From: a virus
Lineage: Duplodnaviria; Caudoviricetes
DNA length: 53,362 nt
IMG/VR virus record: IMGVR_UViG_3300044707_001188
Span: 1-53,362 of that record
Strand: one strand, 5' to 3'
In this document: positions 6,001 to 42,358 of the stretch, piece by piece
How positions within the stretch are numbered: position 1 is the stretch's first letter
Layout: each line of letters begins with the position of its first letter
The notes under the pieces: generated by a model
What the model was told of the DNA's origin: nothing
The model's database searches: none
Seen by the model: the letters and a program-made list of their open reading frames with translations, nothing else
Position numbers and translations under genes: made by a program

Positions 6001-9000
6001 GGTAGACGCCGGGCAGCGTCGGGTTGGACCGCACCGATAGGGTGGCGGTGGGGAGTACGTCCCCAGCGGAGGTGGCTTGCCCGGCTCGGGAACGTAGATC
6101 ACCTCCTCGGGCACGGGGTAGCGCCCGTCCGGCAACAGGCTGCAGGTCCTGCTGGGTTTCTGGGAAGAGGTCATAGCTGAGATCGTAATTCGAGACCGGA
6201 TCGTTGACGTTGTAGACACCGCTCTCCTCTCGCGCAAGGTTTGCGTCGCCGTCCGCCTTCCCAGTCTTCAATGGCGGCAACCCCAGCACCTCGCGCGCGA
6301 CGTCGGGGTGCGAGACAGGGATCAGCTTGCCGTCGGCCCGAACCTGCAGCAGATGCTCGACCGCGCGCCGTAGCGTGGCCTCGTTCAGGTTGCGCACCGA
6401 CATCACATCGCCGCGCTTGTAGAAGTCCTGCCTGAGCGCGTCGATCAGCCTCTGGTCCAGGTAATAGGTGCCGCCCTCGCGCTTGGCCGCCGCAACAGAG
6501 ATGCTGTAGGTGGGCGCACCCTCCCCGTGCGAACGCAGGATGCGCAGCGTCCCGGCCGCGTTCCTCACCGTCGCCCCACCGCCGGCCCGCTCGAAGAACT
6601 GCATCAGCTTGACCGGCGCCGTGAAGACCACGGCATCCGCAGCCGCCTGCTGCTTGACCTTCTCGAAGTCGTAGCCCCGGCGCATCAGCACGCCCTGCTG
6701 CACGCGCCCGTCGTCGGTGGTGTAGCTGACGATCTGCCCGGGGAACTTCGCGAACCCGGCCAGCAGGTTGCCGGTGACCATCCAGCGCTGCTCGCGCCGC
6801 ACGTTGCCACTGCCGCCGCTGTACAGGTCGAACAGCTCCGGGATGCTGTAGTAGCGGGCGGTGTCCGTCTTGGGGTCCAGGGCCGCCACCGGCTCGACCT
6901 GCTTGCGCAAGGTGACGCTGCGCCCGAGTTGGCTCACGCTCAGCGTGAGCGACCGCGCATCCCCGTTGGCCAGCGCCAGCGTGATCTTCCACGACGAGCC
7001 CGCCGCCGGGTTCTTGGTCGTGCCGGTATTCGCAATCGAGGTGATGATCCCGTAGGTGGGCACCTGCATCGAGTCGAGCACCGTCACCTGGTCGCCGACC
7101 CCGTAGTTGCGCAGCGTCTCCTCGACCAGGTTCTTCTGCATCCCGACCGTGTCGACCTGCCGCTGGATCTTCAGCGGGTCGGTGTCGGCGGCCTCCAGCT
7201 TCGCGCGCAGCGCCTGCACATAGATCGCGGTACGGGCGCTCAGGTCCCGGATCATGTCGACGCGCATCTTCAGCGCAGTCTGTCCGCCCAGGCTCTGCGC
7301 GATGGCCGCCTCGACCTCGGCGCTGGACATGGGCTTGACCGTGCGCGCCACGTCCACCTTCTCCATGTGCGCCGGCTCGGCGAACCGGGAGCCGGCATCG
7401 CCTTCGCGCTGTGCCGTCACCTGCTCGCTCGACAGCGTCTTCGCACCCAGGTTCAGCGCCTTGGCCTCCAGCTTGTTCGTGCCCATCGCGTCCTCGCGCG
7501 CGATCAGATCGTTGTAGCGCTGGGTCAGGTCGGCATAGATCTCCTCCTGCTGCTTGATGGGCAGGATGGGGATGTAGCCGGTGAGCTTGCGGATCAGCTC
7601 GTCGTCGGCTTCCTCGACCTTGTCGGGCACCTCCAGCCGGTCCTGCCCTCCGAGTTCGGCGTGGACATCGGGGTTGTCCATCAGGAACTCGGCTGCGACC
7701 TGGCCGCCGTAGTCGTTCATGAAGTCGACCACGCCCTCGGCCGTCACCGCCGACTTACGGCTGGCGGTGGTGTTGGCGTTCAGCGAGGCCATCTTCTTCA
7801 TCAGCACCGCCGCTGGCCGCATCTCGGCCGGGATGTCGGCCATGGCCTGCGTGTAGTCGGGCGTGATCACCTGCCCGGTGCGGTGCACGCGGCCGAGCAT
7901 CTGCATGTGGGTGTCGATGTTGCGCTCGGCCTGCACGATGATCATGCGGCGCTTGCGCTGGTCCTTGACCTTGGCCGATGCGTGCAGCGACAGGCCCGTC
8001 GAGCCCGACTGGTTCAGGATCAGCGCGTCGACCTCGCCGCCGTTGAAGCCCCGAATGGCCCGCAGGCGCTGGCGGATGTTGGCCGTGCGGTTGGCCAGCA
8101 CCGGCGAGGGGCCGGCGTAGTTCACCGTGATGTTGCGCCCGGTGATCTCGTCGGTCTTGAAGCCCGCCTCGCGCAGGCGGTTGTGCATGAAGTCGATGGG
8201 CGAGATGGGCGCGGCCCCGAAGCCCGCGTTGCCGATGAATTCGGCCGTGCGGTTGAACATCTTGACGAGCGACTCGCCGAGTTGCTCATCGGTCAGTCGG
8301 GACTGCTCCGGCGGCGCGCCCCCAGGGCGCTTGATCGTGATGACGCGCTGCTTTTCCAGGTAGCGCAGGTACAGGTCCCGGAAGCTCAGCGCCACCGGCT
8401 CGCCCGGGCGAAGGTCCATCTCCTTGGCGTAGTCCGCCAGGAACGAGCCCATCGTATTGGCCACGGTGAGCACCACCTTCTCGCCCGCCTTCAGCCGCTC
8501 GATGGCGAAGTCCACCGAGTCCTGCGCCTTCAGCGCAAGAAGCATCTGGTCGATCAGGTTGTGCATGATCGCGCCGAAGTTCGCGCCCTGCACCGTCGCC
8601 TTCTCGGTGCCCTTCTCGGTGATGACGGCGCCTTCCTTGTCCAGTTCTTTCTTGATGGCCTCGACCGCCGCTTCCTTGGCGCGCGAGAAGGCGAGCACCA
8701 TGCGCATGGCGGTGGCCATGTTCTCGGCCGTGGCCTTGTCGACCGTGGTCGCCCGGGTCTCGTATCCCACGCCTGCGAAGGTGCGCTCGCGCCGGATGTA
8801 CTGGCCGTCCTCGGAGAGCATCGTGGCCACGATCTGCTGCAGCGGCACGCCCCCGGTCTGGATAGCCGGCGCGAGCTGGGTGGGCTTCTCCACAGCGAGC
8901 ATCATGTTCGTGCTGCTGTACAAGTCCATCACGTCGGGGCGCTTGGCGTAGGTGGCCGAGCTGAAGAAGCTGCCCGCCGAGTTGCGCACCAGCACGCGGG

Positions 9001-12000
9001 CAAAGCCGGCGCGGCCGAGCTTGTCCTCGCCCTGCTTCAGGGCCTCGCGCTGCTCCTTCGTGCGCGCCTGCGTCGTGGAGGTACCGCCGGCGTTGTGGCT
9101 TTCGTCGAAGATGACGTAGCCGCCGTCAGCGAAAGCCTGCAGGAATCGCATCCGGGCCGTGGTCTTGCCCGCTACCGTCTGGATCTGGCTGTAGGTCGTG
9201 AAGATGACCTTGAAGCGCCCCAGGCTGCCCTCGCCGACCATGCCGTCCATCAGCTTGTTCAGCTCCGGCCCACTGGCTGGCGGGCGCAGCACGAGTTCGA
9301 GTTCGACCCGATCGCCGTTGCGCTCGCGCTGCAGCGTGTAGTCGATCGACTCCTTGCTGTTGGTCATCAGGATGCCCGGGCGCTGCGTGGACAGCCCCAG
9401 TTCCTCGGCCATGCCGATGTCGTCGAGGTCGCGGATCATGTCCGCGTACAGGTTGGGCTTCTCGGTGACGAAGATCGGCACCTTGCCGCTGCGCAGCGCG
9501 TAGCGGATCATCCCGGCCACCACGCGGCCCTTGCCGATGCCGGTCTGGTCCCCGATGATGAAGCCGCGCCCCTGCTCGGCGTTGTAGATCGCCAGCGCCA
9601 GCGCGTCGACCTGCTCGGCCGAGAAGTAGCCGGCGAGTTCAAGCGGGTCGTACTCGAGCTTCTGGGCGACGAAGGCGTCGAGATCGCCCACCGCCGCCTG
9701 CACGCGCTCCAGCGACTTCTGCACCGAATCGCGCATCGCGCGCGGCACCAGCGTGCCCACTGACGGCGCGCTGGAACCCGGCGTGTAGGCCACCTGTCCG
9801 GCGGTCTCCTGCTCCTGGCCGCGGCGGTCGCTCAGTCCAGGCTTGACGAGCTGGTCTCGGCCAGGGCCATCTCCAGCCACGCCTCCAGATCGGTTTCCTC
9901 CAGCGCCTCCCGGACGGCCTCCATCCGCACCGTCGGGCGAGCGGGCACCTTGGCCGGGAACGGATTGATCCGACTGTTCATCTGAAGAGACAGCACCGTC
10001 TGCAGATGCAGGTTGTGGCTGAACAGGCTGCCGCCCGCCTCGTATGCCCTCACGACTCCCATCACGCCCATCGCCGACAGCGCCCGATTGGCCATCCGCA
10101 GGCCTTGCGGATGTTGATCCACCATTCGGTTGATCCGGTCCTCCACGGCGTCCATCCACGCCCACTGCGTCAGTTCGCCCGGGGGCACCATCACCCCGCA
10201 CAGACCCGCCTGGACGTTCGGGGGACACCACGGCACCAGAACCCGACGCTGCTCCTGGGGCGTTGACGGCGGCGTTTGCATCCAGCTTCTCCTTCAGGGC
10301 CGGCCACGAGTCGAAGCGCACCGGCAGTTGGGCGGCGGGCAAGGGTCGAGTGGCCTTGCCACCACGGCCCGCGATCACGATCACGTCCACGGGGTAGCCG
10401 GCGCCCTGGCGCGCGTACAGATCGCCGTCGACCGTGAAGTGGTCGACGACCTGGTAGTCGTTGTACAGGCGGAAGTAGAACTCCCGCTTGGCTTTGGCAC
10501 GGTAGCCGTCACGGATCTCGTCCTCGGCGCGGGCATCCACCCCGCCGACGATCAGCACGGCGCGGCCGTCGTCCTTGAGTGATTCGAGGGCCTTCATCGC
10601 GATGGCGTGGTCGACCTCCCGCGTCGCGAAGAACGGCGCGGCGGCCCACACGGTAGGCTCGCCCTTGTCATCGCGCACCACCCCGAAAGGCGGGTTCATC
10701 ACCGCCACATCCAGGGACTTCGGCGGGGCCAGCGCAGAAGTGGCCGCGTCGTTGCGCTGCACCTCGAAGCCCAGGGCGCGAGCGTTATCGGCGCGCTCGG
10801 CGTTCAGCTCGTTGACGACGGCATCCTTTGGGGCGACCTCGATCAGCAGCATCGTGTTGCCGGCCGTGGGCTCGCCCACCTTGTCGCCGGGCTTGATGCC
10901 CGCCAGGCGCGAGGCCAGGAAGGCCAGCGGCACCGGCGTCGAGTAGGCCTGCTCGCGCACGCTGGTGGACGAGCGCATGCCCAGCACCGGCTGCAGGCCG
11001 TACAGGTTGACCAGGCGGTCGTAGATGACACCATCGGTGCGCCCCTGGCGCCGTGCAGCGGCCACGATCTCGCGCCCGGCCAGCACGACGGCAACTTCCA
11101 CCGTCTCGTCGGCCCGCTTGGCAGCCTGTGTGCCGGGCTCCACGGGCTGACCGGTCAGCTCAGCGATGAACTTGCGGGCCTCGACGATGGTCTTGAAGCC
11201 CTCGCCGCCGAGTAAGCGGTCGGCGAGGGCCTGGGCCGTGGCGCGGCGGCCGGAGGCGGTGGTGAGGGATGGGCGTTCGGCAGCGTTCTGGGTGGTTTGC
11301 AGTTCTGGAGCGGTGTTGTCGGTTTGCGCGTTCCGCTTGTTTTGCGCGTCTTGCGCGATTGCCGCGTCCACGTCGATGTCCTCGACGTCGGCTGCGCGGT
11401 CCATGTCCGCTTTGAACGACGCTGCGCGAGGGTCGTTGCGCACCGCCAAGTACCACGACACCAGGTAGGGTTTGACGGCCTCACCCAGGTCGTCGACCAT
11501 CGCCCGCGCATAGGCAGCAAACCGGCGCGCACCGCGCTCGATGTGATACCCCGCCAGCGTGATGCCATCCAGCAGCGTCTCGGGGTCGATGCCCGACTGC
11601 AGGCGACCGAGCTTCTTGCGTAGGCGCTCGCGCGCCGCCTGGGCCGCATCCTCGGTGAAGATGGTGTTCGGCTTGGCAGCCGCAGTGGCGTCAGACGGTG
11701 CGGCGGGGGTGGAGGAATCGACCGGCGCCCCAGGCGTCTGCCCGGGCGCGCCAGCCGACGGGGTCAGTACCCCGGTTTCGGGGGCTTCTTGCCCTTGCCC
11801 TTCTTCATCATTGGTCGCTCCTTGGCGGGTTGCGGGCGCGCTTGCCGGGGCGCTCGATGCCGGGGTTTGGCGCCTCTGAGCGGCCGGGGGCTTACCGCCA
11901 AGTCGGTAGAAGCCCACCGCCGTGTCGACGATGTCCTGTGCGGTGCGGAAGTCCAGATCGGCTTGGCGCTGCTCGTCGCTCTGCATCAGCAGACGGTGCA

Positions 12001-14812: not shown

Positions 14813-14853
14813 GAGCAAGCCGCCAGCCGCCGAGTTGAGACCGGCGTCCAAGG

Positions 14854-14864
14854 TGCCATGCTTG
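14854..14864 (-). promoter_or_regulatory. Putative late-promoter motif CAAGCATGGCA (copy 1, upstream of giant gene)
   Basis: Exact 11-mer, intergenic; here inside the inverted repeat GGTGCCA-tgct-TGGCACC (14852-14869). Confidence 0.65.
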
Positions 14865-18841: not shown

Positions 18842-18852
18842 TGCCATGCTTG
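18842..18852 (-). promoter_or_regulatory. Putative late-promoter motif CAAGCATGGCA (copy 2)
   Basis: Exact 11-mer 13 nt upstream of the GNAT ATG; 18 bp (18835-18852) identical to 34951-34968. Confidence 0.65.
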
Positions 18853-32059: not shown

Positions 32060-32512
32060 TCAGACCGCCCGGTACAGCAGCGTCAGACCCACCTCGCCGG
32101 CCGCCTTGGTGGCCGCGGCGGCGGTGAACTTGATGCCGATCCGGGTGTCGCTGGTGGCGCTGGCCGCCAGGCGCATCGCGGCCTTGGACAGCGTCAGCGT
32201 GGCGGCAGTGCCGTCGCGGCTGGCGGTGATGCCCGAGGCCCAGACGTCCGACAGGTCCGTCTCCGCCGCGTTGACGGGGCCGACGCTGGCCGAGATCGTC
32301 GGGCTGGCGTTGGTGTCGAGGTCGTCCGAGTCATAGACCAGGCCGACGGGCACGCAGCCCGCGGGTAGCACGGCCACGGCACCGGTGTCGTTGGCGTCCA
32401 GGTCGGCCGCGACCAGCGCAATGGGGAAGCGGACGGCGACCACCTCGCCGCCGGCCGGGAGGACCGTCGGCTTGCGGCCGTCCAGATAGTCGTTGCGATT
32501 CGTGAAAGGCAT
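32060..32512 (-). CDS. Capsid decoration/cement-like virion protein
   Basis: AGGAG RBS; immediately after MCP; LPAG..V..DDLDT beta-rich pattern. Confidence 0.7.
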   Translation of the reverse strand: MPFTNRNDYLDGRKPTVLPAGGEVVAVRFPIALVAADLDANDTGAVAVLPAGCVPVGLVYDSDDLDTNASPTISASVGPVNAAETDLSDVWASGITASRDGTAATLTLSKAAMRLAASATSDTRIGIKFTAAAATKAAGEVGLTLLYRAV

Positions 32513-32535
32513 GGTGCGCTCCTGAGGTGAGGGGG

Positions 32536-33654
32536 TCAGCGGTTGGCTGCCGCGGTGTCGAGGCTGAACAGCCCGAAGTCCTGCGCGCCCACGCCGTCCA
32601 TCGAGAACGTGACCTTCTTCATCCCGAAGATCGAGCTGGTCGTGATGACCACCTTGTCCCCGTTGTCGCGGGTCTCCTCATGCCAATCGAAGCGCATGTT
32701 GGTGCCCGGGCTGCCGAAGGCGACCACCGCCGCCTGCGAGCCAAGGAACAGCGCGCGAGCGGCCTCGACGTTGGCGCCGGCGCCCGCGTTGGCGAAGCGG
32801 ATCACGTTGCGGTGCGAGTGCAGGATCACGCCCCGGTACATGCCGAGCGAGCCCTTGAACATCGGGTTGTTGCGCCCCTCGGCACCGGCGGCGGCCTTCT
32901 GGATGTCGAGCCACTGCCCGGTCTGGACGTTGGCCCGAAGGTCATCCTCCTGGAAGGTGTGCATCACGCACACGAAGGTCTCGTTGCCGTCGATCTTGCA
33001 GGGCTGAAGCACCGGCACCCCGGTGGCGCCGCCGCCCTGGCTGTCGGCCCGGGTCTTGGCGCGGTCGATCAGCCGCAGGTCGAACTTGTCGTTGGCGTCC
33101 AGGTTGTTGAAGGCCGTCGCGTCACCGCCGTACATGCGGTGGTTGGCGTCCGGCGTGACGAGCGGGTTCTGCGCGCGCCCGGTGTAGTCGGTCGGCAGCA
33201 GGAAGTTCGGGTTCACGCCCCGGGCTCCGGACAGGTAGATGAACAGCAGTTCGTCCATCAGCCGCGCCCACCAGCTCGACTGCTGACGCTTGGCCTTCTC
33301 GCGCAGGTCGTGCAGGGTGCGCTTGCGGGTCATGCGCCCGCCGGTGTTCACGCCGCACCGCGCCTGGTCGATGTAGATCTGGTCGGTGTAGAACTTCTGG
33401 CCTTCTTCCTTGCCTTCGAGGATGTCCTCGCCCTCGACGGGGGCCATGCGCAGCTCGGCCAGCAGGTCGTAGCTGATCTGCTCCCCGGCGTCGGACTCCA
33501 GGTCGGTGAGGATCTGGATCGGCACCTCGGCCTCGGCGCCGCGGGCCATGAAGCGCTGGTTGAAGTAGGACTTGTGCGACTGGTCGTGCGCCAGCAAGCC
33601 ACTCCACTTCTTGACCGCCTTGGGGTCATTGACTCCAACAATCGTGCGTGCCAC
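32536..33654 (-). CDS. Major capsid protein, N4-gp56 / DUF4043 family
   Basis: DLESDAGEQI, LEGKEE, IDQ.R, DLR, F.GSLGMY.GVILH, RALFLGSQA, E..D.G; GAGGAG RBS with GTG. Confidence 0.93.
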   Translation of the reverse strand: MARTIVGVNDPKAVKKWSGLLAHDQSHKSYFNQRFMARGAEAEVPIQILTDLESDAGEQISYDLLAELRMAPVEGEDILEGKEEGQKFYTDQIYIDQARCGVNTGGRMTRKRTLHDLREKAKRQQSSWWARLMDELLFIYLSGARGVNPNFLLPTDYTGRAQNPLVTPDANHRMYGGDATAFNNLDANDKFDLRLIDRAKTRADSQGGGATGVPVLQPCKIDGNETFVCVMHTFQEDDLRANVQTGQWLDIQKAAAGAEGRNNPMFKGSLGMYRGVILHSHRNVIRFANAGAGANVEAARALFLGSQAAVVAFGSPGTNMRFDWHEETRDNGDKVVITTSSIFGMKKVTFSMDGVGAQDFGLFSLDTAAANR

Positions 33655-33702
33655 AGGAATACTCCTCTGGGCCCATCGGCCCCAAAGAGCACTCCTGCGC
33701 TC
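33655..33702 (-). promoter_or_regulatory. Capsid mRNA leader with two mutually exclusive folds (RBS-sequestering stem vs GGA-loop hairpin)
   Basis: AGGAGUGCUC (33696-33687) pairs with GAGUAUUCCU (33664-33655) over the SD; alternatively GAGCGC-AGGA-GUGCUC (33702-33687). Confidence 0.65.
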
Positions 33703-33723
33703 GACATCGACAGCAAACGCGGG

Positions 33724-34002
33724 TCAGGTTGCCATGCTTGCCACGGAAGAAATCGCCGGCTCGTCGAAGGACTGCCAGCCCACACCCAGGCGGGTCGACG
33801 GCACCACACGCGCCGGCCGCCCCCGCTGGATACGCACCTCGGGCGGTGCGACGATGCGCAGCCGCACCAGGGCCCCGGTCTTGTGTTCGGGCTCCACCAC
33901 CACGGTACATAACGCAGACGGATCACCCTGCACCGACAGCGACAGCCGCTCACCGACCCGCAGGTCGATCACCATCCCGGCCTGGTGTCGCGCCAAGGAC
34001 AA
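33724..34002 (-). CDS. CsrA/RsmA-like RNA-binding protein (start TTG 34002 or ATG 33975)
   Basis: DLRVGERL..VVV....GALVRLRIVAPPEVRIQR matches CsrA RRVGETL..VTV...GNQVRIGVNAPKEVSVHR, including the Arg44 equivalent. Confidence 0.7.
   Translation of the reverse strand: MSLARHQAGMVIDLRVGERLSLSVQGDPSALCTVVVEPEHKTGALVRLRIVAPPEVRIQRGRPARVVPSTRLGVGWQSFDEPAISSVASMAT
33730..33740 (-). promoter_or_regulatory. Putative late-promoter motif CAAGCATGGCA (copy 3, upstream of MCP)
   Basis: Exact 11-mer just upstream of the structured capsid leader. Confidence 0.65.
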
Positions 34003-34014
34003 GCCTTCCAGAAC

Positions 34015-34917
34015 TCAGATCGCCCGCGCGAAACGCTCGCGCTGCACAGGCGTCATCCGCGCGATGGCGGCCTCGTACTCGAGCCCGTCCAGAGACAGCA
34101 CGTCAGCGAACTCTCCGCCGATGTCACCAGGCCCGTCGGCACCCGGCACCTGCGCCAGCGTGGCAGGGACATCATCCAGACGCGGCTTGCGCGCGGCAGC
34201 GGCCTCGGCCTTGCGGTCGACGGCCGAAGTAGGTGCTGGTGCCGCAGCGGAAGCCGGCGAGCCGCGCAACGCCATAACCCGCTTGTGCGCCTCGGCCAGG
34301 AACCACTCCATTGGCTGACGGGCATTGGACTCGCGACCGGCCAGCACCTTGACGAAGCCGTCCAGGTCGGCCATGGCCTCGCTGTCCTTGCGGTAGTCCA
34401 GCGCCGCGGCACTGGTGTCGAGGAAGCGCTCCACCGTCGTGCGCCACTGCGCTTCGGCCGTCTGCGCCTGCATCTCGCTGGCGATCTCGGCCTTGGCGCG
34501 GGCGATGGTCAGACCTTCGCGCTCGCGCTGCAACTCATCGCGCCGAGTCTCGAACTCGTCGAACTCCAGCTCACCGGCCCGAAAGGCCCGCTTGAGCTCC
34601 GCCTCGCGATCCGCCACCGCCTTGACCTTGTCGTCGTAGTCGGCGGGCAGTGCAGCCTGGTAGCCGGTGGGCGTGGCGTTGGTCGGGGCGGCGGCCGGAG
34701 CCGCAGCAGCAGGGGCAGGGTCTGGGGCACCAGCAGCCTCCGAGCCCTGATCGCCCTCGTCGTCGCCGTCATCGTCACCGTCGTCGCCCTCTGCATCAAC
34801 GCCCGGTGCATCGGCCGCTGCCGCCGGCGCAGCGTCCGCGTCCTCATCGTCGGACTGGATCGCCGCGCGTTCCTCGTCGGTCAGCGTGGCCAGGGCGTCG
34901 GCGTCGAAGGTGCTCAT
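34015..34917 (-). CDS. Capsid scaffolding protein
   Basis: Acidic N-term, coiled coil, C-term YEAAIARM helix; between portal and MCP. Confidence 0.75.
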   Translation of the reverse strand: MSTFDADALATLTDEERAAIQSDDEDADAAPAAAADAPGVDAEGDDGDDDGDDEGDQGSEAAGAPDPAPAAAAPAAAPTNATPTGYQAALPADYDDKVKAVADREAELKRAFRAGELEFDEFETRRDELQREREGLTIARAKAEIASEMQAQTAEAQWRTTVERFLDTSAAALDYRKDSEAMADLDGFVKVLAGRESNARQPMEWFLAEAHKRVMALRGSPASAAAPAPTSAVDRKAEAAAARKPRLDDVPATLAQVPGADGPGDIGGEFADVLSLDGLEYEAAIARMTPVQRERFARAI

Positions 34918-34957
34918 GGAGGCTTCCTCGGGTCAAGCGTGAAAGGCGGCGGCAGAC

Positions 34958-34968
34958 TGCCATGCTTG
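34958..34968 (-). promoter_or_regulatory. Putative late-promoter motif CAAGCATGGCA (copy 4, upstream of scaffold)
   Basis: Exact 11-mer in the 56-bp portal-scaffold gap. Confidence 0.65.
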
Positions 34969-34973
34969 GCGCG

Positions 34974-37340
34974 TCAGTCGTCCTTCGCCTTGGTCTTGCT
35001 GGTCTTTGTGGAGTCGCCCGACGATTGCTCCAGCGCCTTGAGCCGCTGGTCGAGGGCCTGCAACCTGCGGTCGCTGGCCGCCTGGATCTGGGCCACCCGC
35101 GCCTTGGCGTCGGCGTCGATACGGGCGACTTCCAGCTTGGTGTCGGCTTCGCGGTTGATCTGGATGGCCCGGTTGGCCAGCTCCGCCTGGGCCTTGCGCA
35201 GCGCCTCGCTCAGGCGGTCGATCTCGGCCGCAGCCTCGGAGCGGACCTTGGCCAAGGCCTCCTGCATCCCGGCCTGGCCCTGGGCTTCACCCTCGACCCC
35301 CACCATGCCCGCCTCGGCCTCCAGCTTGGCGGCCCGGGCGTTGATCTCCCGCACCTTGGCCTGCTGCTCGGACAGCGCGGCTCGGGCAGTCTCGCGCTGC
35401 AACTCCATCGCTTCGGCCTGCATCTGCGCCTGCTGCTCGGCTTGCGCCTGCTCATCGGGCGTCATCGGCTTGGAGGTATCGCGGTCCCCGGTCAGCTTGC
35501 GGATCTGATCGGCGATCTCGTCCTTGTTGGGCAGGTCCGAGAACTCCATCGCGATGGTCAGCACACGCAGCGAGATCTCAGGCGGCAAGCGGTTGGCCAG
35601 CTCGCCCAGGCGCTCGAACATGACCTGGCGCATGGTCCCCGCGTAGTCCTGCTCGGCGACAACAAAGTCGCCCATGCTGGCGGTGATGTCGTTCATCCAC
35701 CGCACGCTGCCGTCGGGCTGCACCTCGGGCTGGTTGATACGCACCCACTCCAGCGCGCCCTTGGCGCCGGTCAGGCGGATCACCTTCTCCTGCGTGTACC
35801 ACTGCTCCACCAGGGACAGCTGCTTCTCGCCCTGCACCTGGGTCGCCAGGCGCAGGTTGTCGAACGGCTCGGTGGTGACAACGGAGCCCTGCAATTGCCG
35901 CGCCTCGATGGCCTTGCCCGACACGGCGTTGGTCTGCCGGCCCATGTTTTCGTCGGCGACGCCGCCCGAGCGCTGGATGCCCCGCATCCCAAGCTCCATC
36001 ATCTGGATCTGGCCGGTGGCAGCGTCGGTGTCGCGGCGGATCTCCAGCTTGCGGCCGGCCTTGTAGACCACGACACCGTCGGGCCGGTCAGCCTCGTCGC
36101 GCAGGGTCTCCCAGTCCTCGGTCGCGCCTTCCTCGGCCAGGATCTGGTTGCTGTTCAGCATGAACAGCGCCTTGGACGCGCGCTTGTTGATGTCCTGCTG
36201 GATGTCGCGCACCCGGCGGATGGCGCCGTAAGGCAGCCGGTCGCGGCTACGGCGGTAGCACCAGATCGGCGTCAGAGAAAACCGGTTGTGCCGGTACTGG
36301 CTCGGGCCGCTGCCCAGCAGATGCGACTCTGTGAACACCGCGATGTGCACACGCATCATCAGCTTGTCCACGATCATGCTGCCCAAGCGCCCCAAGGCGT
36401 CGGCCAGCGCACGGTCGGCGGGGTTGAAGATCGCGCCGCGCAGCGGCCCCTCATCGACGATGCGTACCTGGGCGGGCTTGCGGTATTGGCACTCGATCAG
36501 CTTGACCCGTCGGCGCCGCGCATCGGCCAGCTGGCCGACGCCTGCGGCGTAGAGCGTGCCGGTCTTCACATTGCTGAGGTCGTGCGCGGTGTACCAGGTC
36601 TCCTCTTCCCAGCCGTCGGTGGTCAAGTGCGTGCCTTCCTCGACCGCCTGGCGGATGCAGTCGGCACGGTCAGGGAACATCAGAAGCGCCACATCCTCGT
36701 CCACCCAACGCCAGCGGAACAGGTAGCGCGCGTCCGACAAGTCGTGCTCGTAGGCGTTGCTGTCCCACAGCACGTTGCGCCAGTCCTCGTACTTCGAGTA
36801 CAGGATGTCCTGGGTCGGGTCGTCGCGCACCCCGTCGTCCATCCAGCCCACGCCAGCCTTGATGGCGTCCGCGAAGGCGCGAGATCGCAGGAAGGTGACG
36901 CGGTTGATGTCCGAGACGTACTTCAAGACCCGCGTCTTGACATCGGCCAGGTCGACGTCGTCCTCGGTGCGCGGCAGCACGCGCCAGTCCACCCGGGTCC
37001 GCCGCTCGGTGCCGATCAACCAGTCGACCATCGGCGCGATCTCGTTGTAGACCAGGGGCATTTGCCCGCGCTCGCGCAGGACGGCGGCGTCCTCGGGATC
37101 CCACTGCAACGAGTCATAGAAGTCGCAGTCCATCGCCATGTCCAGGCGGTTCAGCGACTGGCGCTCCTTCTCGTAGAAGTACCACTCGAGCAGCTGGCGC
37201 AGCTCGCGCCGGGCCTGCTCCGAGTCCAGCTTGTGCTGGCCAGCCGAGGCTGTCACCACCGCGCTCTGGGGCCGCAGCACCTCGTCCAGCGAGCCCCCGT
37301 CGCGGCGGCGGCGGGAGAACTCCAGCGGCTCAATGGGCAT
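34974..37340 (-). CDS. Portal protein (P22-like, long C-terminal coil)
   Basis: DFYD..QW, P..YN.I, G.G W, DLSDARY, PYG.IR..RD.Q..INKR.SK, SG.AI..RQ.QG. Confidence 0.92.
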   Translation of the reverse strand: MPIEPLEFSRRRRDGGSLDEVLRPQSAVVTASAGQHKLDSEQARRELRQLLEWYFYEKERQSLNRLDMAMDCDFYDSLQWDPEDAAVLRERGQMPLVYNEIAPMVDWLIGTERRTRVDWRVLPRTEDDVDLADVKTRVLKYVSDINRVTFLRSRAFADAIKAGVGWMDDGVRDDPTQDILYSKYEDWRNVLWDSNAYEHDLSDARYLFRWRWVDEDVALLMFPDRADCIRQAVEEGTHLTTDGWEEETWYTAHDLSNVKTGTLYAAGVGQLADARRRRVKLIECQYRKPAQVRIVDEGPLRGAIFNPADRALADALGRLGSMIVDKLMMRVHIAVFTESHLLGSGPSQYRHNRFSLTPIWCYRRSRDRLPYGAIRRVRDIQQDINKRASKALFMLNSNQILAEEGATEDWETLRDEADRPDGVVVYKAGRKLEIRRDTDAATGQIQMMELGMRGIQRSGGVADENMGRQTNAVSGKAIEARQLQGSVVTTEPFDNLRLATQVQGEKQLSLVEQWYTQEKVIRLTGAKGALEWVRINQPEVQPDGSVRWMNDITASMGDFVVAEQDYAGTMRQVMFERLGELANRLPPEISLRVLTIAMEFSDLPNKDEIADQIRKLTGDRDTSKPMTPDEQAQAEQQAQMQAEAMELQRETARAALSEQQAKVREINARAAKLEAEAGMVGVEGEAQGQAGMQEALAKVRSEAAAEIDRLSEALRKAQAELANRAIQINREADTKLEVARIDADAKARVAQIQAASDRRLQALDQRLKALEQSSGDSTKTSKTKAKDD

Positions 37341-37749
37341 AGGTCGCGCCCTCGCGCTCGATGCGGATGTCCTGCTGCGCCAGCACCTGCCCGTCGGCGC
37401 GCAGCGTCATCGCCCCGACGCTGCCCGGGTAGAACTCGGCCGGCGGGGCCGAGGGCATCTTCACCAGGTCGGGCAGCCCGTCATGGATGATCCCGGCAAC
37501 CCGCACCCAGTTGGCCCGGCTGGGCTCGATGCCCAGCACTTCGCAGGCCGTGACGCACTGGCGGGCCAAGTAGGCGGGGTCGTCGTAGCGCCAGGCTGAC
37601 GAGTCGCAGACGATGTACCAGGGTGCGCCGGGCCGATGGGCAGGCAGCAGCACCATCGCGCGCTCGTCATTGACCCAGGTGAAGACAACCACCAAGTCAC
37701 CGTGCTGGCGAGTCGCGTAAGCCTTGCGAGGATTGAGGGTTGCGGGCAT
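37330..37749 (-). CDS. Conserved hypothetical phage protein preceding portal
   Basis: ATG 37749 (MPATLNPRKAY); overlaps portal start; IHDGLPDLVKMP. Confidence 0.75.
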   Translation of the reverse strand: MPATLNPRKAYATRQHGDLVVVFTWVNDERAMVLLPAHRPGAPWYIVCDSSAWRYDDPAYLARQCVTACEVLGIEPSRANWVRVAGIIHDGLPDLVKMPSAPPAEFYPGSVGAMTLRADGQVLAQQDIRIEREGATYAH

Positions 37750-37779
37750 GATTGAGCGTCGTCGGGAATGTGGCGAGGC

Positions 37780-37790
37780 TGCCATGCTTG
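37780..37790 (-). promoter_or_regulatory. Putative late-promoter motif CAAGCATGGCA (copy 5, portal operon)
   Basis: Exact 11-mer 30 nt upstream of ATG 37749, at the boundary of the moron. Confidence 0.65.
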
Positions 37791-37819
37791 GGGCGATACA
37801 ACGAGATTTCGGAGCACCT

Positions 37820-40800
37820 ATGGATAAGTCGTTGATTATCGTTATTGACCAGTTTTCAGATCGAGTTCTCGATAATAGCAATGTAACACTATTTGATTAT
37901 GGAAAGCTAGAGAAGGTAGCATATATTGATAACTATTACAATGTATACAATGGAAGTTTTTCAGGATACGGGAATTATGACGATCTGCTACTAGTCGAGG
38001 ACTATGGATACGGGTTCTTCCCGGTTTCAAAAGACGGGGTATTGTATTCGTACACGTCAGATCTAGATTTCATTGCTCGACAATCATTCATTGATATATT
38101 TGGGCTAACCGCTTACGCAGACAATTACCTTAGCCTTTCTCGAACAAATCAATCATCAGAACTTTCAGTAAATCATGGGGATTGGGTTGTTGAAGCACTC
38201 TTGCAAACTCTTGATCGACCGCAGTACACCGAAATAATTTGTATCGACGTCGACACCTTGAATGGCGAGTACTCTCATTTTGATGATGTCTTTGATCAAA
38301 CATTAATCTATTTTGATGGATCAACGTTTATCGGATCCAACCTTGAGAAGATATTGACATCTTTTCTTTCCTCGAATGACACTAGATTTAGTATATCTGG
38401 CTCCACACAATACGCTTTAGGAGGCATCAGCCTATCTATCGGAGGCACATTACCAGATATCAATGAGGCAATTTTCTTGGATTTCTTAGAAACTGCAAGA
38501 GTCCCTATATTTCAAGCCGCACCAAATGTCAACCAAGGATTTTATGATTATGCGATGGTGTTTCCAAACGTTATTACGGTTGGCGCATGGAATAAATCAA
38601 ACGCAAACGGTCTCCTCTTGGGATCGGATAGCACAATCGCAACGATAGATATAGTTGCGGATGGTTTGGTTTCCAAGAACGGATGGGGTTGGAACTTTGG
38701 AACATCATTTGCCACCCCAAAAGTAGCAGCCGAGTTTTTGAATATACTTAATGATGCGATTGTTTCATTGAACAATTCGGGGAAAAGCCTCTCGGATATT
38801 GAAACGCCAGATATTGAGGGAATTATTTATTCGAATTTCGTCAATTCCATAATACACGCAATATCGACAGATGTACTAGCAACAATAAATGGAGAACAAA
38901 TTTCGGGCATAAAAGTTCTTACGTCCACAGTCGAACAAAACGGATTTATACCAAAGACGGTAAGCGGCGTAAGTGGGTCAAGTTTTGTGATTTCAAGCGC
39001 ATCGGCGGATGTGCCTCAAGTCAATAGACCGCCGAACGGAAGCGTTACGATTACTGGTAATGCAATCCAAGGTCAGGTCTTGACAGCATCGAATACTCTG
39101 TCGGATGCTGATGGGTTAGGTGTGATCACCTACACGTGGCGAGCGGGCGGCACACCAGTCGGTACCGGGACAACGTACACACTGAGCCACGCTGAGGTCG
39201 GCAAGACAATTACAGTCACAGCCAGCTACATCGACGGCGGCAACACCATGGAGTCGGTCTCAAGTGCTGCCACCGCCACGGTAGCCAATATCGAAGACGC
39301 TCCCGTAATTGTGGCTGGTGATGGCATAGTTACGACAAAAATAGGTTCGGAACAAAATATAGCACAAGGCGTTTTATTACAGCCCGATCAGAAAATCCTA
39401 ATTGTCGGCTACAGCAATAACGGGAAGTACCACGAATTTGCACTTATTCGCTACAACATAGATGGCAGCCTCGATACAAGTTTTGATTTTGATGGAAAGG
39501 TCACGACTGCAATAGGATCAAGTAGGGCAGAGGCTTCAAGCGCTCTACTGCAACCCGATGGAAAGATTTTGTTGGCAGGTGGCAGCGATCAAGAGTTTAC
39601 CCTTGCACGATACAACGACAATGGAGATCTTGACTCGACTTTTGGCAATAGCGGTATAGTCACTATGTCAGTCACGGCGGGGGCCGATATCGGACACAGT
39701 GTTGCACTACAGCCGGATGGAAAAATTCTATTTGCCGGATATAGCCTTAACGGCAACACCAGTGATTACTCCCTTGTACGCCTCAATTCCAACGGCAGCT
39801 TAGACTCTCTTTTTGGCCAAGGCGGCAAGGTTATTACTCCGATTGGGACAGGCGATGATTTCGGATTAAGTACAACGCTTCAGTCTGACGGGAAGATATT
39901 GGTAGCTGGCTATAGTCACAACGGAAGTAACAATGATTTCTCCCTCGCTCGCTACAATACTAATGGGAGCCTCGATACAAGCTTTGATTTTGATGGCAAG
40001 GTCACGATTGCAATTGGGTCAAGTAGAGACGAAGCTCGCGGGATCACGGTGCAGTCGGATGGAAAAATCTTGATGGCTGGATTTTCCTACACTCAGATAA
40101 GTGGGAATTTTGATTTTGCAATCGTCCGCCTTAATCCGAATGGCAGTCTTGATCAGACGTTTGGCGACAAAGGCAAAGTTATTACTTCGATAGGCATCGG
40201 TGATGATATTTCTCGGAGTATCACCCTTCAACCTGATGGCAAAATATTGGTATTGGGCTACTGCTCAAATTCTGAATCCAATGATTTCGCGCTCGCCCGC
40301 TACAACACCGACGGAAGTCTAGATACCACGTTTGATTCAGATGGTATAGTCACGACTTCGATTGGAATTGGTAATGATTTTGGATTGAGCGTTACGGTTC
40401 AATCGAATGGCAAGATATTAGCGGCGGGGTATAGTGAAGATAAATTCGCCCTCGTTCGATATAACTCGGATGGTAGCCTGGATAAGGGATTTGATTCAAT
40501 TGGGGGCACTGGCTTAAATGTGAGCGTCAGGACTTGGAACACTAATTCATCAATGCCAAGTGTTGGCGTTACAATCGGACAAAACACACTTGCGACTGAT
40601 CCATTAGGGCTTGCTAACTTTGTGTCTGCTGTCGACTCTTCTACGTTGGTATCCGCCGCCGTCGCGTCTTCCTCTTCTGTCTACAGTGGCGCATCACAGT
40701 CCGTCACCCTTCAAGATGCTGTCTCCATCCTGAAAATGATCGGTGGTCAATCAGCAGACGCCACACCCGTTTCGCGCTTTCAGTCGCTGGCCGCAGACTT

Positions 40801-41047
40801 CGACGGTTCAGGCACTGTCAGCCTCGCCGACGCCCTTGGGGTGCTGCGGCACGCAGTAGGGCTTCCGGCCCCGACACCGTCCTGGGTCTTCGTCGAAGAA
40901 GGTGACGACGCACTTTCGTCGGTCCTGAGTCCGGGCGTTCCTGTCCCTGTGACCGTCGACGTGACCCCACCCGGTCCCATCGAGGTCAACCTGATCGGAG
41001 TCCTTCGCGGAGACGTGGACGGCAGCTACGGCGTCTACGGCAGTTGA
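37820..41047 (+). CDS. Moron: S8 subtilase-like domain + Ig/cadherin-like domain + 7 delta-60 repeats + dockerin/EF-hand-like C-terminus
   Basis: GGAG RBS and ATG 37820; candidate triad IIVID / NHGDWV / GTSFATP, with AAPN at the oxyanion position; NRPPNGSVTITG..DADGLG; (L/V)Q(P/S)DGKIL..RYN.DGSLD repeats x7; ADFDGSGTVSLADA, GDVDGS; much more AT-rich than flanks; opposite strand. Confidence 0.85.
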   Translation: MDKSLIIVIDQFSDRVLDNSNVTLFDYGKLEKVAYIDNYYNVYNGSFSGYGNYDDLLLVEDYGYGFFPVSKDGVLYSYTSDLDFIARQSFIDIFGLTAYADNYLSLSRTNQSSELSVNHGDWVVEALLQTLDRPQYTEIICIDVDTLNGEYSHFDDVFDQTLIYFDGSTFIGSNLEKILTSFLSSNDTRFSISGSTQYALGGISLSIGGTLPDINEAIFLDFLETARVPIFQAAPNVNQGFYDYAMVFPNVITVGAWNKSNANGLLLGSDSTIATIDIVADGLVSKNGWGWNFGTSFATPKVAAEFLNILNDAIVSLNNSGKSLSDIETPDIEGIIYSNFVNSIIHAISTDVLATINGEQISGIKVLTSTVEQNGFIPKTVSGVSGSSFVISSASADVPQVNRPPNGSVTITGNAIQGQVLTASNTLSDADGLGVITYTWRAGGTPVGTGTTYTLSHAEVGKTITVTASYIDGGNTMESVSSAATATVANIEDAPVIVAGDGIVTTKIGSEQNIAQGVLLQPDQKILIVGYSNNGKYHEFALIRYNIDGSLDTSFDFDGKVTTAIGSSRAEASSALLQPDGKILLAGGSDQEFTLARYNDNGDLDSTFGNSGIVTMSVTAGADIGHSVALQPDGKILFAGYSLNGNTSDYSLVRLNSNGSLDSLFGQGGKVITPIGTGDDFGLSTTLQSDGKILVAGYSHNGSNNDFSLARYNTNGSLDTSFDFDGKVTIAIGSSRDEARGITVQSDGKILMAGFSYTQISGNFDFAIVRLNPNGSLDQTFGDKGKVITSIGIGDDISRSITLQPDGKILVLGYCSNSESNDFALARYNTDGSLDTTFDSDGIVTTSIGIGNDFGLSVTVQSNGKILAAGYSEDKFALVRYNSDGSLDKGFDSIGGTGLNVSVRTWNTNSSMPSVGVTIGQNTLATDPLGLANFVSAVDSSTLVSAAVASSSSVYSGASQSVTLQDAVSILKMIGGQSADATPVSRFQSLAADFDGSGTVSLADALGVLRHAVGLPAPTPSWVFVEEGDDALSSVLSPGVPVPVTVDVTPPGPIEVNLIGVLRGDVDGSYGVYGS

Positions 41048-41059
41048 TCCGCGCTCTGA

Positions 41060-42358
41060 TCACACAGCCATCGCACTCCCCTTCCTCCGCAGCCCCACCG
41101 CGGTCCCCGACCGAAACCGATCCTCCGCCACCACGCACATCAGCCCGAACGCATCGGCGCCGTGACTCGACCAGTCATGCTCCGGCCCCAGGCCAATGCT
41201 GCGAGCCTCGTCCTTGCGCTCGTGATACCAGCCGAGCGCATCCAGCCCCGCTGAGGTCGTCGCCTCGTTGAACCAGACCGACGTGAACAGCCGCCGCCCG
41301 GCCTCGATGCGCGCTGCAGCTGCGCCGCGGCCTTGGTTGGGCACCACCTCCACTGCATAGCCCGCCTGGCGCAGCGCGGACTCGTAGCTGACGTCGAAAA
41401 CCTTGTCGTGGGTCGACCCGTCGTGCGGCAGCCAGATGTCGGCCTTGCCAGGCGCGTAGCCCTGCGCACGCATCCACGCCAGATGCGCCGCCAGCGGCTG
41501 GCCCACGGCCTCGTAGTAGTTCAGGACGCGGATCTCTCGCCCGACGAACTGCGCCACCCAGATCGTGAAAGCGTCGGCCCTCGCGCCCGTGCCGCCAATG
41601 TCGCAGAACAGGCGCACCGTCATCAGCGGGTCGGCAGCGACCTTGCCGATGCGGCCGGCGGCGCGCGCCTCGGCCAGCACCCGGGCGTAGTACGCACCCT
41701 CGAGCACCGTGGCGTAGCCGCCTTCCCAGATGTGGCTGTACTGCTCAGGCGTGTCGCGCAGGCAGTCCTGGCGCTCCTGCTTCAACACCGCGGGGAAGCG
41801 CGGGTTGTCGGCCCAGTTGGCACGCACCACCACCGCGCCGGTGGGCAGCGTCGCGCCGCGCAGCATCATGTCCACCGCGTCGGTCTTGCGCCGAGGGTTC
41901 CACGAGAACCAAAGCTCGGAGCCCTCCGCCCGCAGCGTCGGCCGCAGCAACTGCAGCGACCTGGCCGACAGCGACTGCGCCTCCTCCACCCAGGCACGCC
42001 GGTAGCCTTCCAGGCTCTTGATGCTCTCGGCGCTGTGGTCCTGCATGCCGATGAAGGTGATCAGGCCATCGCCTGGCGCCTGGATGACCTCGTTGAACAC
42101 CTTGAACCCGTCGGCCTCGCCGATGCCCAGCGCCGAGAGCTTGTCCTCGATCAGCCGCTTGCTCGACTCCTTCAACGTCTTCTGCACCTCGCGGATGCAC
42201 ACCGAGCGCATGCCCTTGTGGCAGATGTGATCCTCGATCAGCAGCTCGGCGAAGAAGTGCGACTTGCCGCTGCCCCGGCCGCCGTAGGCACCCTTGTACC
42301 GGGCTGGGCCCAGCAGTGGACGGAACACCCGCGCAGTGTCAAGCGTCAGGTTTCTCAA
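41060..42358 (-). CDS. terL: Terminase large subunit (PBSX/Terminase_3 type)
   Basis: GGRGSGKS Walker A, CIRE.Q, WVEEAQ Walker B, SWNP, DIG, HDWSSHGADAF. Confidence 0.95.
   Translation of the reverse strand: MRNLTLDTARVFRPLLGPARYKGAYGGRGSGKSHFFAELLIEDHICHKGMRSVCIREVQKTLKESSKRLIEDKLSALGIGEADGFKVFNEVIQAPGDGLITFIGMQDHSAESIKSLEGYRRAWVEEAQSLSARSLQLLRPTLRAEGSELWFSWNPRRKTDAVDMMLRGATLPTGAVVVRANWADNPRFPAVLKQERQDCLRDTPEQYSHIWEGGYATVLEGAYYARVLAEARAAGRIGKVAADPLMTVRLFCDIGGTGARADAFTIWVAQFVGREIRVLNYYEAVGQPLAAHLAWMRAQGYAPGKADIWLPHDGSTHDKVFDVSYESALRQAGYAVEVVPNQGRGAAAARIEAGRRLFTSVWFNEATTSAGLDALGWYHERKDEARSIGLGPEHDWSSHGADAFGLMCVVAEDRFRSGTAVGLRRKGSAMAV

Follow-up and report, generated by a model that had tools for sequence, protein, structure and literature searches.

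The 53,362-nucleotide (nt) stretch of tailed-phage DNA analysed here (Duplodnaviria; Caudoviricetes; positions 1 to 53,362 of IMG/VR record IMGVR_UViG_3300044707_001188; hereafter the window) carries on its minus strand the late module of a podophage-type prophage, in which a portal gene, a scaffold-like gene and a small CsrA-like open reading frame (ORF) are followed by a 69-nt leader and the major capsid gene. The leader RNA was found to have two alternative folds, fold A and fold B (the latter also referred to as hairpin B), which are both real, mutually exclusive and conserved. Fold A buries the Shine-Dalgarno (SD) sequence and the start codon of the capsid gene, and hairpin B displays GGA in its loop and is a candidate site for the product of the CsrA-like ORF. 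That this phage protein captures hairpin B and so opens the capsid ribosome binding site (RBS) is given a probability of about 0.5, as judged from the sequences and their arrangement. The leader element itself is far more general than an observation in a single window.

Hairpin B (33687–33702, minus strand, as are all leader features) reads GAGCGC-AGGA-GUGCUC, a 6-base-pair (bp) stem of GAGCGC (33702–33697) and GUGCUC (33692–33687) that closes the loop AGGA (33696–33693); by itself it was predicted at -7.7 kcal/mol. Fold A (33652–33699) is a long hairpin in which hairpin B, by its loop and its 3′ half, pairs with the capsid SD GAGGAG (33662–33667), which contains a second GGA, with the spacer and with the GUG start codon (33654–33652). 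It consists of 16 bp, a 1x1 internal loop and then a 5-bp apical hairpin (33669–33682), and it buries both the SD and the GUG. Hairpin B thus provides the anti-SD strand through its loop and 3′ half, so that the candidate protein site would overlap the strand that pairs with the SD. The 51-nt RNA of 33652–33702 was predicted by RNAfold at -36.9 kcal/mol (z-score -7.15), none of 200 dinucleotide shuffles being as stable, and the same stem was recovered in a 91-nt context; all four scored SD positions were paired in the minimum-energy fold of the window leader. Among 17 late-gene starts in the window, the capsid leader had a z-score of -7.8, compared with -1.3 to +1.5 for the other 16. These results agree with the initial annotation, which had quoted the minus-strand leader exactly as it is present here and had described a long stem burying the SD and a 6-bp AGGA hairpin competing for the same anti-SD strand. 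No U tract is present 3′ of the fold A stem (next letters GGCACGC), which therefore does not qualify as an intrinsic terminator or attenuator, and neither a minus-strand terminator nor any sigma-70 promoter was called in 32400–35100. The covariance models of Rfam 15 gave only chance-level matches (E = 1.3 and 5.2), neither of them on the leader. The window and the 5 kb past its low end yielded no further copy of the hairpin, and the lysis genes of this prophage were not located. Relatives of the leader were seen in metatranscriptome contigs of two studies (freshwater and aquaculture), at positions corresponding to 33388–33795, 33494–33729 and 33576–33826; these contigs are of low depth and carry neither transcript ends nor strand, and an uncovered stretch proves nothing. 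Two of their differences lie within the stem and retain pairing (A-U to G-U and G-U to G-C), and the end of one contig at 33729, next to the late motif described below, was given no weight.

For comparison, capsid loci were taken from 30 genome contigs (49–98% capsid identity), from viral contigs (the best 80 of 566 relatives, of which 79 were used, L077 having no upstream DNA) and from 8 cultured phages, and the 116 leaders with at least 70 nt of upstream DNA (L073 left out), 97 of them distinct, were scored. Hairpin B was kept in 114 of the 116 homologous leaders, with the core GCGC-ANGA(N)-GUGC. The loops of the 97 distinct leaders were AGGA(N) in 67, UGGA in 6, AUGA(N) in 11, AAGA(N) in 10, UGAA in 2 and ACGA in one, GGA being present in 73. 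In all 76 distinct hairpins, pairs 1 to 4 counted from the loop were formed and nearly invariant, a G.U pair included; pairs 5 and 6 were formed in 62 and 68 of the 76, with five and four pair types, respectively, and thus covaried. Since pairs 7 and 8 dropped to background in the same set, the stem of hairpin B was taken to be 6 bp. The G.U pair was invariant in 60 of 60 leaders, which points to RNA, and to the sense strand, as the functional form. The near-invariant 12–13-nt core spans phages of alpha-, beta- and gamma-proteobacteria. A covariance model made from the 30 genome-contig leaders gave a single match per locus, always at the capsid leader (66 in total, namely in 65 of the 80 viral contigs and once in the 53-kb window), and no match in the Stx, LKA5 and Vibrio loci or in the more divergent cultured phages. 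The design recurs in cultured phages although the sequences differ: in Bcep22, JC1 and GP4, the 3′ half of the hairpin pairs with a complementary 8-mer located between the SD and the AUG. Most homologues have stems much shorter than the window stem of about 21 bp.

Closure of the RBS was predicted for most of these RNAs. Of the 97 distinct leaders, 78 had at least 3 of 4 nt of the SD paired with the 5′ arm in their minimum-energy fold; in 79, at least 4 nt of the hairpin's 3′ half were paired downstream, and in 64 the start codon had at least 2 nt paired. Enforcing hairpin B cost a median of 6.4 kcal/mol (interquartile range 3.8–8.7), a price that a tight RNA-binding protein could plausibly pay. 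The barrier for refolding from B to A was likewise estimated at a median of 6.4 kcal/mol, and hairpin B therefore should not persist unaided. In an alignment-free test, the duplexes of each leader's own 5′ and 3′ arms averaged -15.38 kcal/mol, compared with -12.16 ± 0.24 kcal/mol for permuted arms, and none of 10,000 permutations was as good; a set of 38 leaders gave the same outcome. In 66 model-aligned leaders, 81.5% of the cells of fold A were paired, compared with 43–66% after sliding, and 9 cells in 4 pairs had changed on both sides; for fold B, the paired cells amounted to 96.1%, compared with 22–70% after sliding, and 11 cells in 2 pairs had changed on both sides. The covariation score was reached by none of 500 shuffles for either fold, counts that overstate the support because this alignment (A4) was fitted to fold A and its sequences are related. 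An unfitted MAFFT alignment of 30 close leaders gave 81.5% paired for fold A, compared with 43–59% after sliding, with 3 double-changed pairs, and 96.6% for fold B, with one. Both stems are thus kept in homologous leaders and both helices show compensatory changes, one of the computational checks named in the initial annotation, all of which turned out favourably for its switch.

The CsrA-like ORF (33724–33975, minus strand; stop TGA at 33726–33724) encodes 83 amino acids from the ATG at 33975. The alternative TTG at 34002 would give 92 amino acids, and comparison with homologues makes the ATG the more likely start. By sequence comparison, the predicted protein is a divergent member of the CsrA superfamily. 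It matched phrog_8397, a "CsrA-like regulator", with an E value of 1e-4, and a family profile with the window protein as first sequence and 26 homologous ORFs of related loci (27 members) matched RsmE (2jpp; E = 1.6e-9, residues 3–47) as well as CsrA structures (2bti, 4.8e-9; 1y00, 1.1e-8; range for CsrA, 4.8e-9 to 7.3e-8). The profile match extends over β1 to β5, the position equivalent to Arg44 included, and PF02599 was matched at E ≤ 0.1 by 26 of the 27 family members, the best value being 3.4e-8. The description of the gene next upstream as CsrA-like in the initial annotation is thereby upheld. Arg44 is critical in CsrA; its equivalent in β5 is R in the window protein, within VRIQR, and among the 99 distinct protein/loop combinations a basic residue is found there in 82. 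Conserved departures of the family from canonical CsrA are an N-terminal xID(V/L)RPGE and a KSGQ motif. A tblastn search of phage records with the window ORF returned nothing at E ≤ 1e-3, and the homologues were reached through the capsid gene. A "CsrA-like regulator" is annotated at the same position in Bcep22 (gp54), JC1 (gp47), GP4 (gp04), Pavtok (gp9) and relatives, and orf23 of CSP3 belongs to the same gene family and occupies the same position 5′ of the major capsid gene. Unannotated small ORFs occur at the corresponding position in Itty13 and SopranoGao; gp06 of POI1126 matched the family profile with an hhalign probability of 28%, too weak for it to be assigned as CsrA-like. Where the loop had GGA, the Arg44-equivalent was basic in 74 of 78 combinations, versus 8 of 21 where it did not (Fisher 5e-8, kinship ignored), which hints that the CsrA-like protein and the RNA loop may co-evolve, with the reservation that the sequences are related. 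Loci with an AAGA loop mostly lack a basic residue at alignment position 51 (the Arg44 equivalent), and in many of them K or R stands immediately before it.

The CsrA-like gene and the hairpin co-occur. A CsrA-like ORF (hidden Markov model, E ≤ 1e-3) was found within 1.3 kb upstream of the capsid gene in 108 of 117 loci; of the nine loci that gave no match, three have too little upstream DNA, and two, L049 and L117, have neither a CsrA-like ORF nor an intact hairpin. In the distant Stx2a_WGPS9, LKA5 and Vibrio K248, which have no adjacent CsrA-like gene, the scaffold gene abuts the capsid gene and the element is absent; LKA5 carries a phrog_8397 gene elsewhere in its genome. At loci with an inserted extra ORF (gaps of up to 794 nt), the hairpin remains beside the capsid start. 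In Agrobacterium phage Atu_ph08, about 27 kb separate the capsid gene from the portal gene, the scaffold gene and the small ORF, and the hairpin is kept at the capsid gene, an arrangement that would imply action in trans.

The host has no CsrA other than the prophage ORF, which was the sole Pfam CsrA match at E ≤ 1 in its 5.19-Mb, 98%-complete genome. The suggestion made earlier that a host CsrA might act on the leader in place of the phage protein is therefore abandoned. No CsrA over the cut-off was found in any of 24 genomes of the same genus that were searched, and 16 further families of the order yielded one; the search recovered its controls from Escherichia coli, B. subtilis and T. maritima. 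Published accounts, in the portions consulted, describe phage csrA genes in other terms. The JC1 gene is called a moron of unknown function, with one CsrA peptide recovered from purified virions (PMC9144972), and the CSP3 gene is also called a moron of unknown function (PMC10269572); a survey reports 30 csrA-positive phages and Burkholderia hosts without chromosomal csrA (PMC7366521); and phage csrA has been proposed to suppress the host CRISPR (clustered regularly interspaced short palindromic repeats) system (PMC8450108). A 2025 functional-genomics paper describes the part played by CsrA in a phage's life cycle as previously untested and reports small plaques after knock-down in PTXU04 (PMC11879866). 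PTXU04 was absent from the 18 records that matched the present CsrA-like subfamily and may carry a different type of CsrA.

In cultured relatives, the hairpin is not confined to the capsid gene. Its core was found on the late strand 20–45 nt upstream of the start of the endolysin gene or lysis cassette in Pavtok (NC_070921.1, 42147), PEp14 (NC_016767.1, 41914), SopranoGao (MF612073.1, 2886, minus strand), Itty13 (MW460249.1, 59731, minus strand) and POI1126, and in POI1126 it also precedes the virion protein gene gp21 and the giant DarB-like gene gp30 (NC_070932.1, 15323, 21641 and 36273 for the three POI1126 copies). An alternative helix covering the start codon or the SD was predicted in 5 of the 7 late leaders folded; the exceptions are POI1126 gp32, whose start is unpaired in the minimum-energy fold, and POI1126 gp21, where the helix excludes the 3′ half of the hairpin. 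All of these late leaders have, as judged by eye, a sigma-70-like -10 element upstream. This distribution suggests a small regulon of late leaders that share the hairpin. Further exact copies, which Bcep22 and JC1 carry some 0.9 kb into the giant gene, and looser matches inside ORFs of Parlo (40238) and GP4 (22372) were set aside as ambiguous or due to chance.

The mechanism proposed for the capsid leader is as follows. The RNA would by default fold into fold A, in which SD, spacer and start codon are all taken up in pairing with the anti-SD stretch and ribosomes would be excluded. Hairpin B, with its core GCGC-ANGA-GUGC, would be transcribed first and would display A-G-G-A in its loop. The CsrA-like protein, produced from the portal–scaffold transcription unit, would bind hairpin B, probably on the emerging RNA, and retain the anti-SD strand; the RBS would be left open, and the capsid protein would be made only after the portal protein, the scaffold protein and the regulator had been expressed. 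Binding, direction of control and timing rationale are all deductions, and the direction, activation, is read from the architecture. Activation is favoured because a repressor would be redundant on the self-closing leader of the most abundant virion protein, because the conserved core calls for a specific binder, and because ymdA, discussed below, offers a precedent (PMC7492729). A wider proposal, put forward tentatively, is that the CsrA-like protein may be a late translational activator of Bcep22-like phages rather than a moron, with its own operator hairpin (GCGC-ANGA-GUGC) in capsid, lysis and other late leaders that otherwise bury the SD or the start. It may thereby time capsid synthesis and lysis after the portal and scaffold proteins in Csr-less hosts, its loop specificity having possibly drifted from GGA along with the Arg44 equivalent.

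Several results weigh against capture of hairpin B by the CsrA-like protein as the way in which the RBS is opened. The window protein alone scored below the cut-off of Pfam CsrA (PF02599; E = 0.048, 14.1–14.3 bits versus 27), and the window copy differs from most homologues by a 9-residue insertion in the β2–β3 region and by its long C-terminal tail. Clear sequestration of the SD is missing in 19 of the 97 distinct leaders, hairpin B lies within the minimum-energy fold in 6, and the loop lacks GGA in 24, although canonical CsrA requires GGA. The window leader was predicted at -24.1 kcal/mol with hairpin B enforced versus -38.1 kcal/mol for its minimum-energy fold, so that fold A is ahead of the fold-B state by 14 kcal/mol, near the extreme of the leaders compared; since this gap exceeds the likely binding energy at equilibrium, co-transcriptional capture would be needed in the window. 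Because the 5′ arm hardly varies, formal covariation is weak inside the close clade, for which 24 of 500 shuffles attained the fold A score. Two loci, L050 and L059, retain the hairpin without a CsrA-like ORF within 1.3 kb. Finally, a complement of the loop tetramer beside the start codon that would track the loop class gave no clear signal, and the claim was dropped.

The GGA in the loop and that in the SD lie about 31 nt apart in the window leader. A GGA in a hairpin loop together with one in the SD is the usual geometry of CsrA repression, and the loop GGA is present, as stated, in 73 of the 97 distinct leaders. A dimer of the CsrA-like protein might accordingly be pictured as binding both sites and repressing capsid translation, for example as a feedback that limits capsid relative to scaffold. 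Such repression is considered unlikely, since the RBS is self-closed without it in 78 of the 97 leaders, so that a repressor would be redundant and nothing would open the capsid site. Moreover, the SD does not change in step with the loop in the 24 leaders without GGA, and the SD of Pavtok, Itty13 and SopranoGao (GAGGA or GAGGG) lies outside the conserved pairing. A second group of explanations needs no protein partner: the element might serve as a 5′ stabiliser, as an RNase III site whose cleavage frees the RBS, or as a co-transcriptional timer, with the CsrA-like gene doing some other job such as host manipulation or service as a virion component. RNase III substrates comprise about two helical turns of duplex, and the window stem of about 21 bp with its internal loop falls within that size range; the hairpins of L050 and L059 stand without a nearby gene, and the single CsrA peptide in JC1 virions and the treatment of the gene as a moron (PMC9144972) would also fit. 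These explanations nevertheless appear improbable, because neither RNase III nor a stabiliser needs a near-invariant 12–13-nt core with a fixed G.U pair, most stems of the family are much shorter than that of the window, gene and element are lost together in L049 and L117, and the hosts have no Csr system to manipulate (see also PMC7366521).

The same leaders without GGA in the loop would suit an operator for another late phage protein or for a host RNA-binding protein, the adjacency of the CsrA-like gene then being mere synteny. This is judged quite doubtful, as the presence of the element tracks the CsrA-like gene, joint absence included, the Arg44-equivalent shifts in step with the loop type, and no other candidate RNA-binding gene is conserved alongside. 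In favour of an inverted repeat without function, little can be said beyond the ready folding of GC-rich DNA; over the entire host genome, matches to the exact core pattern were at chance level (46 versus 41 for the reversed control). A chance origin of the leader hairpin is extremely improbable in view of the z-score of -7.15, conservation in 114 of 116 leaders and the single covariance-model match per locus, always at the capsid leader. Activation through capture of hairpin B by the CsrA-like protein is therefore the reading retained here, at the probability given at the outset.

Canonical repression by CsrA or RsmE, proteins with an intertwined homodimer fold, employs two GGA sites, one in a hairpin and one in the SD. 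The phage case resembles it in the small, putatively β-sheet RNA-binding protein, the GGA in a short hairpin loop and the second GGA in the SD, but differs in that the phage RNA closes its RBS by itself, the hairpin competes with this closure and a quarter of the loops lack GGA; the self-closure and the competition of the hairpin with it argue for activation. Among phage translational operators, the coat protein–replicase hairpin of MS2 and the targets of T4 RegA are bound at the RBS by repressors. By analogy, the phage protein here would also recognise a short hairpin near the RBS and set the amount or timing of a product, whereas its putative operator lies 25–45 nt upstream and competes with an RBS-sequestering helix. 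In the lambda N leader, RNase III opens a stem that sequesters the SD; there, too, translation of a phage gene requires the removal of a long stem in which its SD is buried, but that mechanism involves neither a conserved core nor a link to a CsrA-like gene. The nearest precedent is the activation of E. coli ymdA, in which CsrA destabilises RNA structure that hides the SD (Renda et al. 2020, PMC7492729). In both cases a CsrA-family protein acting on a 5′ leader opens a structure that sequesters the SD and thereby admits the ribosome, which for the phage leader is a proposal. The ymdA gene is chromosomal and under the global host CsrA, whereas the phage case would involve a divergent, phage-encoded regulator in Csr-less hosts and a conserved hairpin of its own that recurs in the leaders of capsid and lysis genes. 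The genes named "CsrA-like regulator" or "carbon storage regulator" in Bcep22-like phages are of the same family and at the same position, and the consulted portions of the literature treat them as morons or as manipulators of the host or of CRISPR. No description of a capsid-leader target of phage CsrA-like proteins was found in those portions, and the RNA element and its link to the CsrA-like gene appear to be undescribed. The initial annotation's remark that no description of such a switch was known to it is too strong: the phage setting and the dedicated element appear new, and the mechanism as such is known from ymdA (PMC7492729).

The 11-mer CAAGCATGGCA, designated the late motif, occurs in five exact copies in the window, all on the minus strand and each just 5′ of a late gene. 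The copy at 33730–33740 overlaps the last codons of the CsrA-like ORF and ends 27 nt before the hairpin, in keeping with the earlier remark that the leader begins just after a copy of this motif; the others lie at 34958–34968 (scaffold-like gene), 37780–37790 (portal gene), 18842–18852 (an ORF near 18.6 kb) and 14854–14864 (giant ORF). With up to 2 mismatches and within 90 nt 5′ of the hairpin, the motif was present in 74 of 102 distinct related upstream regions, and in cultured relatives sigma-70-like promoters stand in its place. No sigma-70-like promoter was called near the copies in the window, and the motif is probably a late promoter or an activator site of unknown type. At L059, four tandem 11-nt units (TTCTCGGGGAT) and two adjacent late-motif copies were observed at about 1290–1440, 5′ of the capsid leader.

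The major capsid gene (32536–33654, minus strand) begins with GUG, and its product matched Pfam Phage_capsid_3 (5e-63) and phrog_334 (7.8e-112). The capsid start codon was apparently ATC in five of the 97 distinct leaders (L052, L059, L079, L093 and L122), GTG in four, that of the window included, and TTG in three; major capsid genes seldom have such weak start codons. On the minus strand, the CsrA-like ORF is preceded by the scaffold-like gene (34015–34917; phrog_8246, 6.9e-49), whose order is as in Bcep22 and JC1 and whose scaffold function is deduced from this position, followed by the portal gene (34974–37340; Pfam P22_portal, 2.6e-152) and the gene for the terminase large subunit (41060–42358). 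Between terminase and portal, on the opposite strand, a low-GC (about 45%) ORF of 1107 amino acids (37724–41047) contains seven DUF5122 β-propeller repeats and looks like a moron inserted into the packaging module. Downstream of the capsid gene lies a giant ORF of 4939 amino acids (32–14851, minus strand), the counterpart of the DarB-like virion protein of Bcep22-like phages, with the late-motif copy directly 5′ of it. This ORF and the capsid protein, which shares about 50% identity with its counterparts in Burkholderia phages DC1, Bcep22 and JC1, identify the window as a Bcep22-like prophage.

Phage CsrA homologues have long been catalogued as accessory morons thought to manipulate the host. 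With the leader described here, this CsrA-like gene family gains a testable job, in which a named cis-target and a mechanism, a capsid-gating RNA switch that in cultured relatives may also gate the lysis cassette, can be proposed for it. If the proposal is true, the element would represent an RNA family missing from Rfam and a compact protein/RNA switch for engineering; the phages would time virion assembly and lysis by a post-transcriptional device, operated by a CsrA-type activator with a dedicated operator in bacteria that lack any Csr system.

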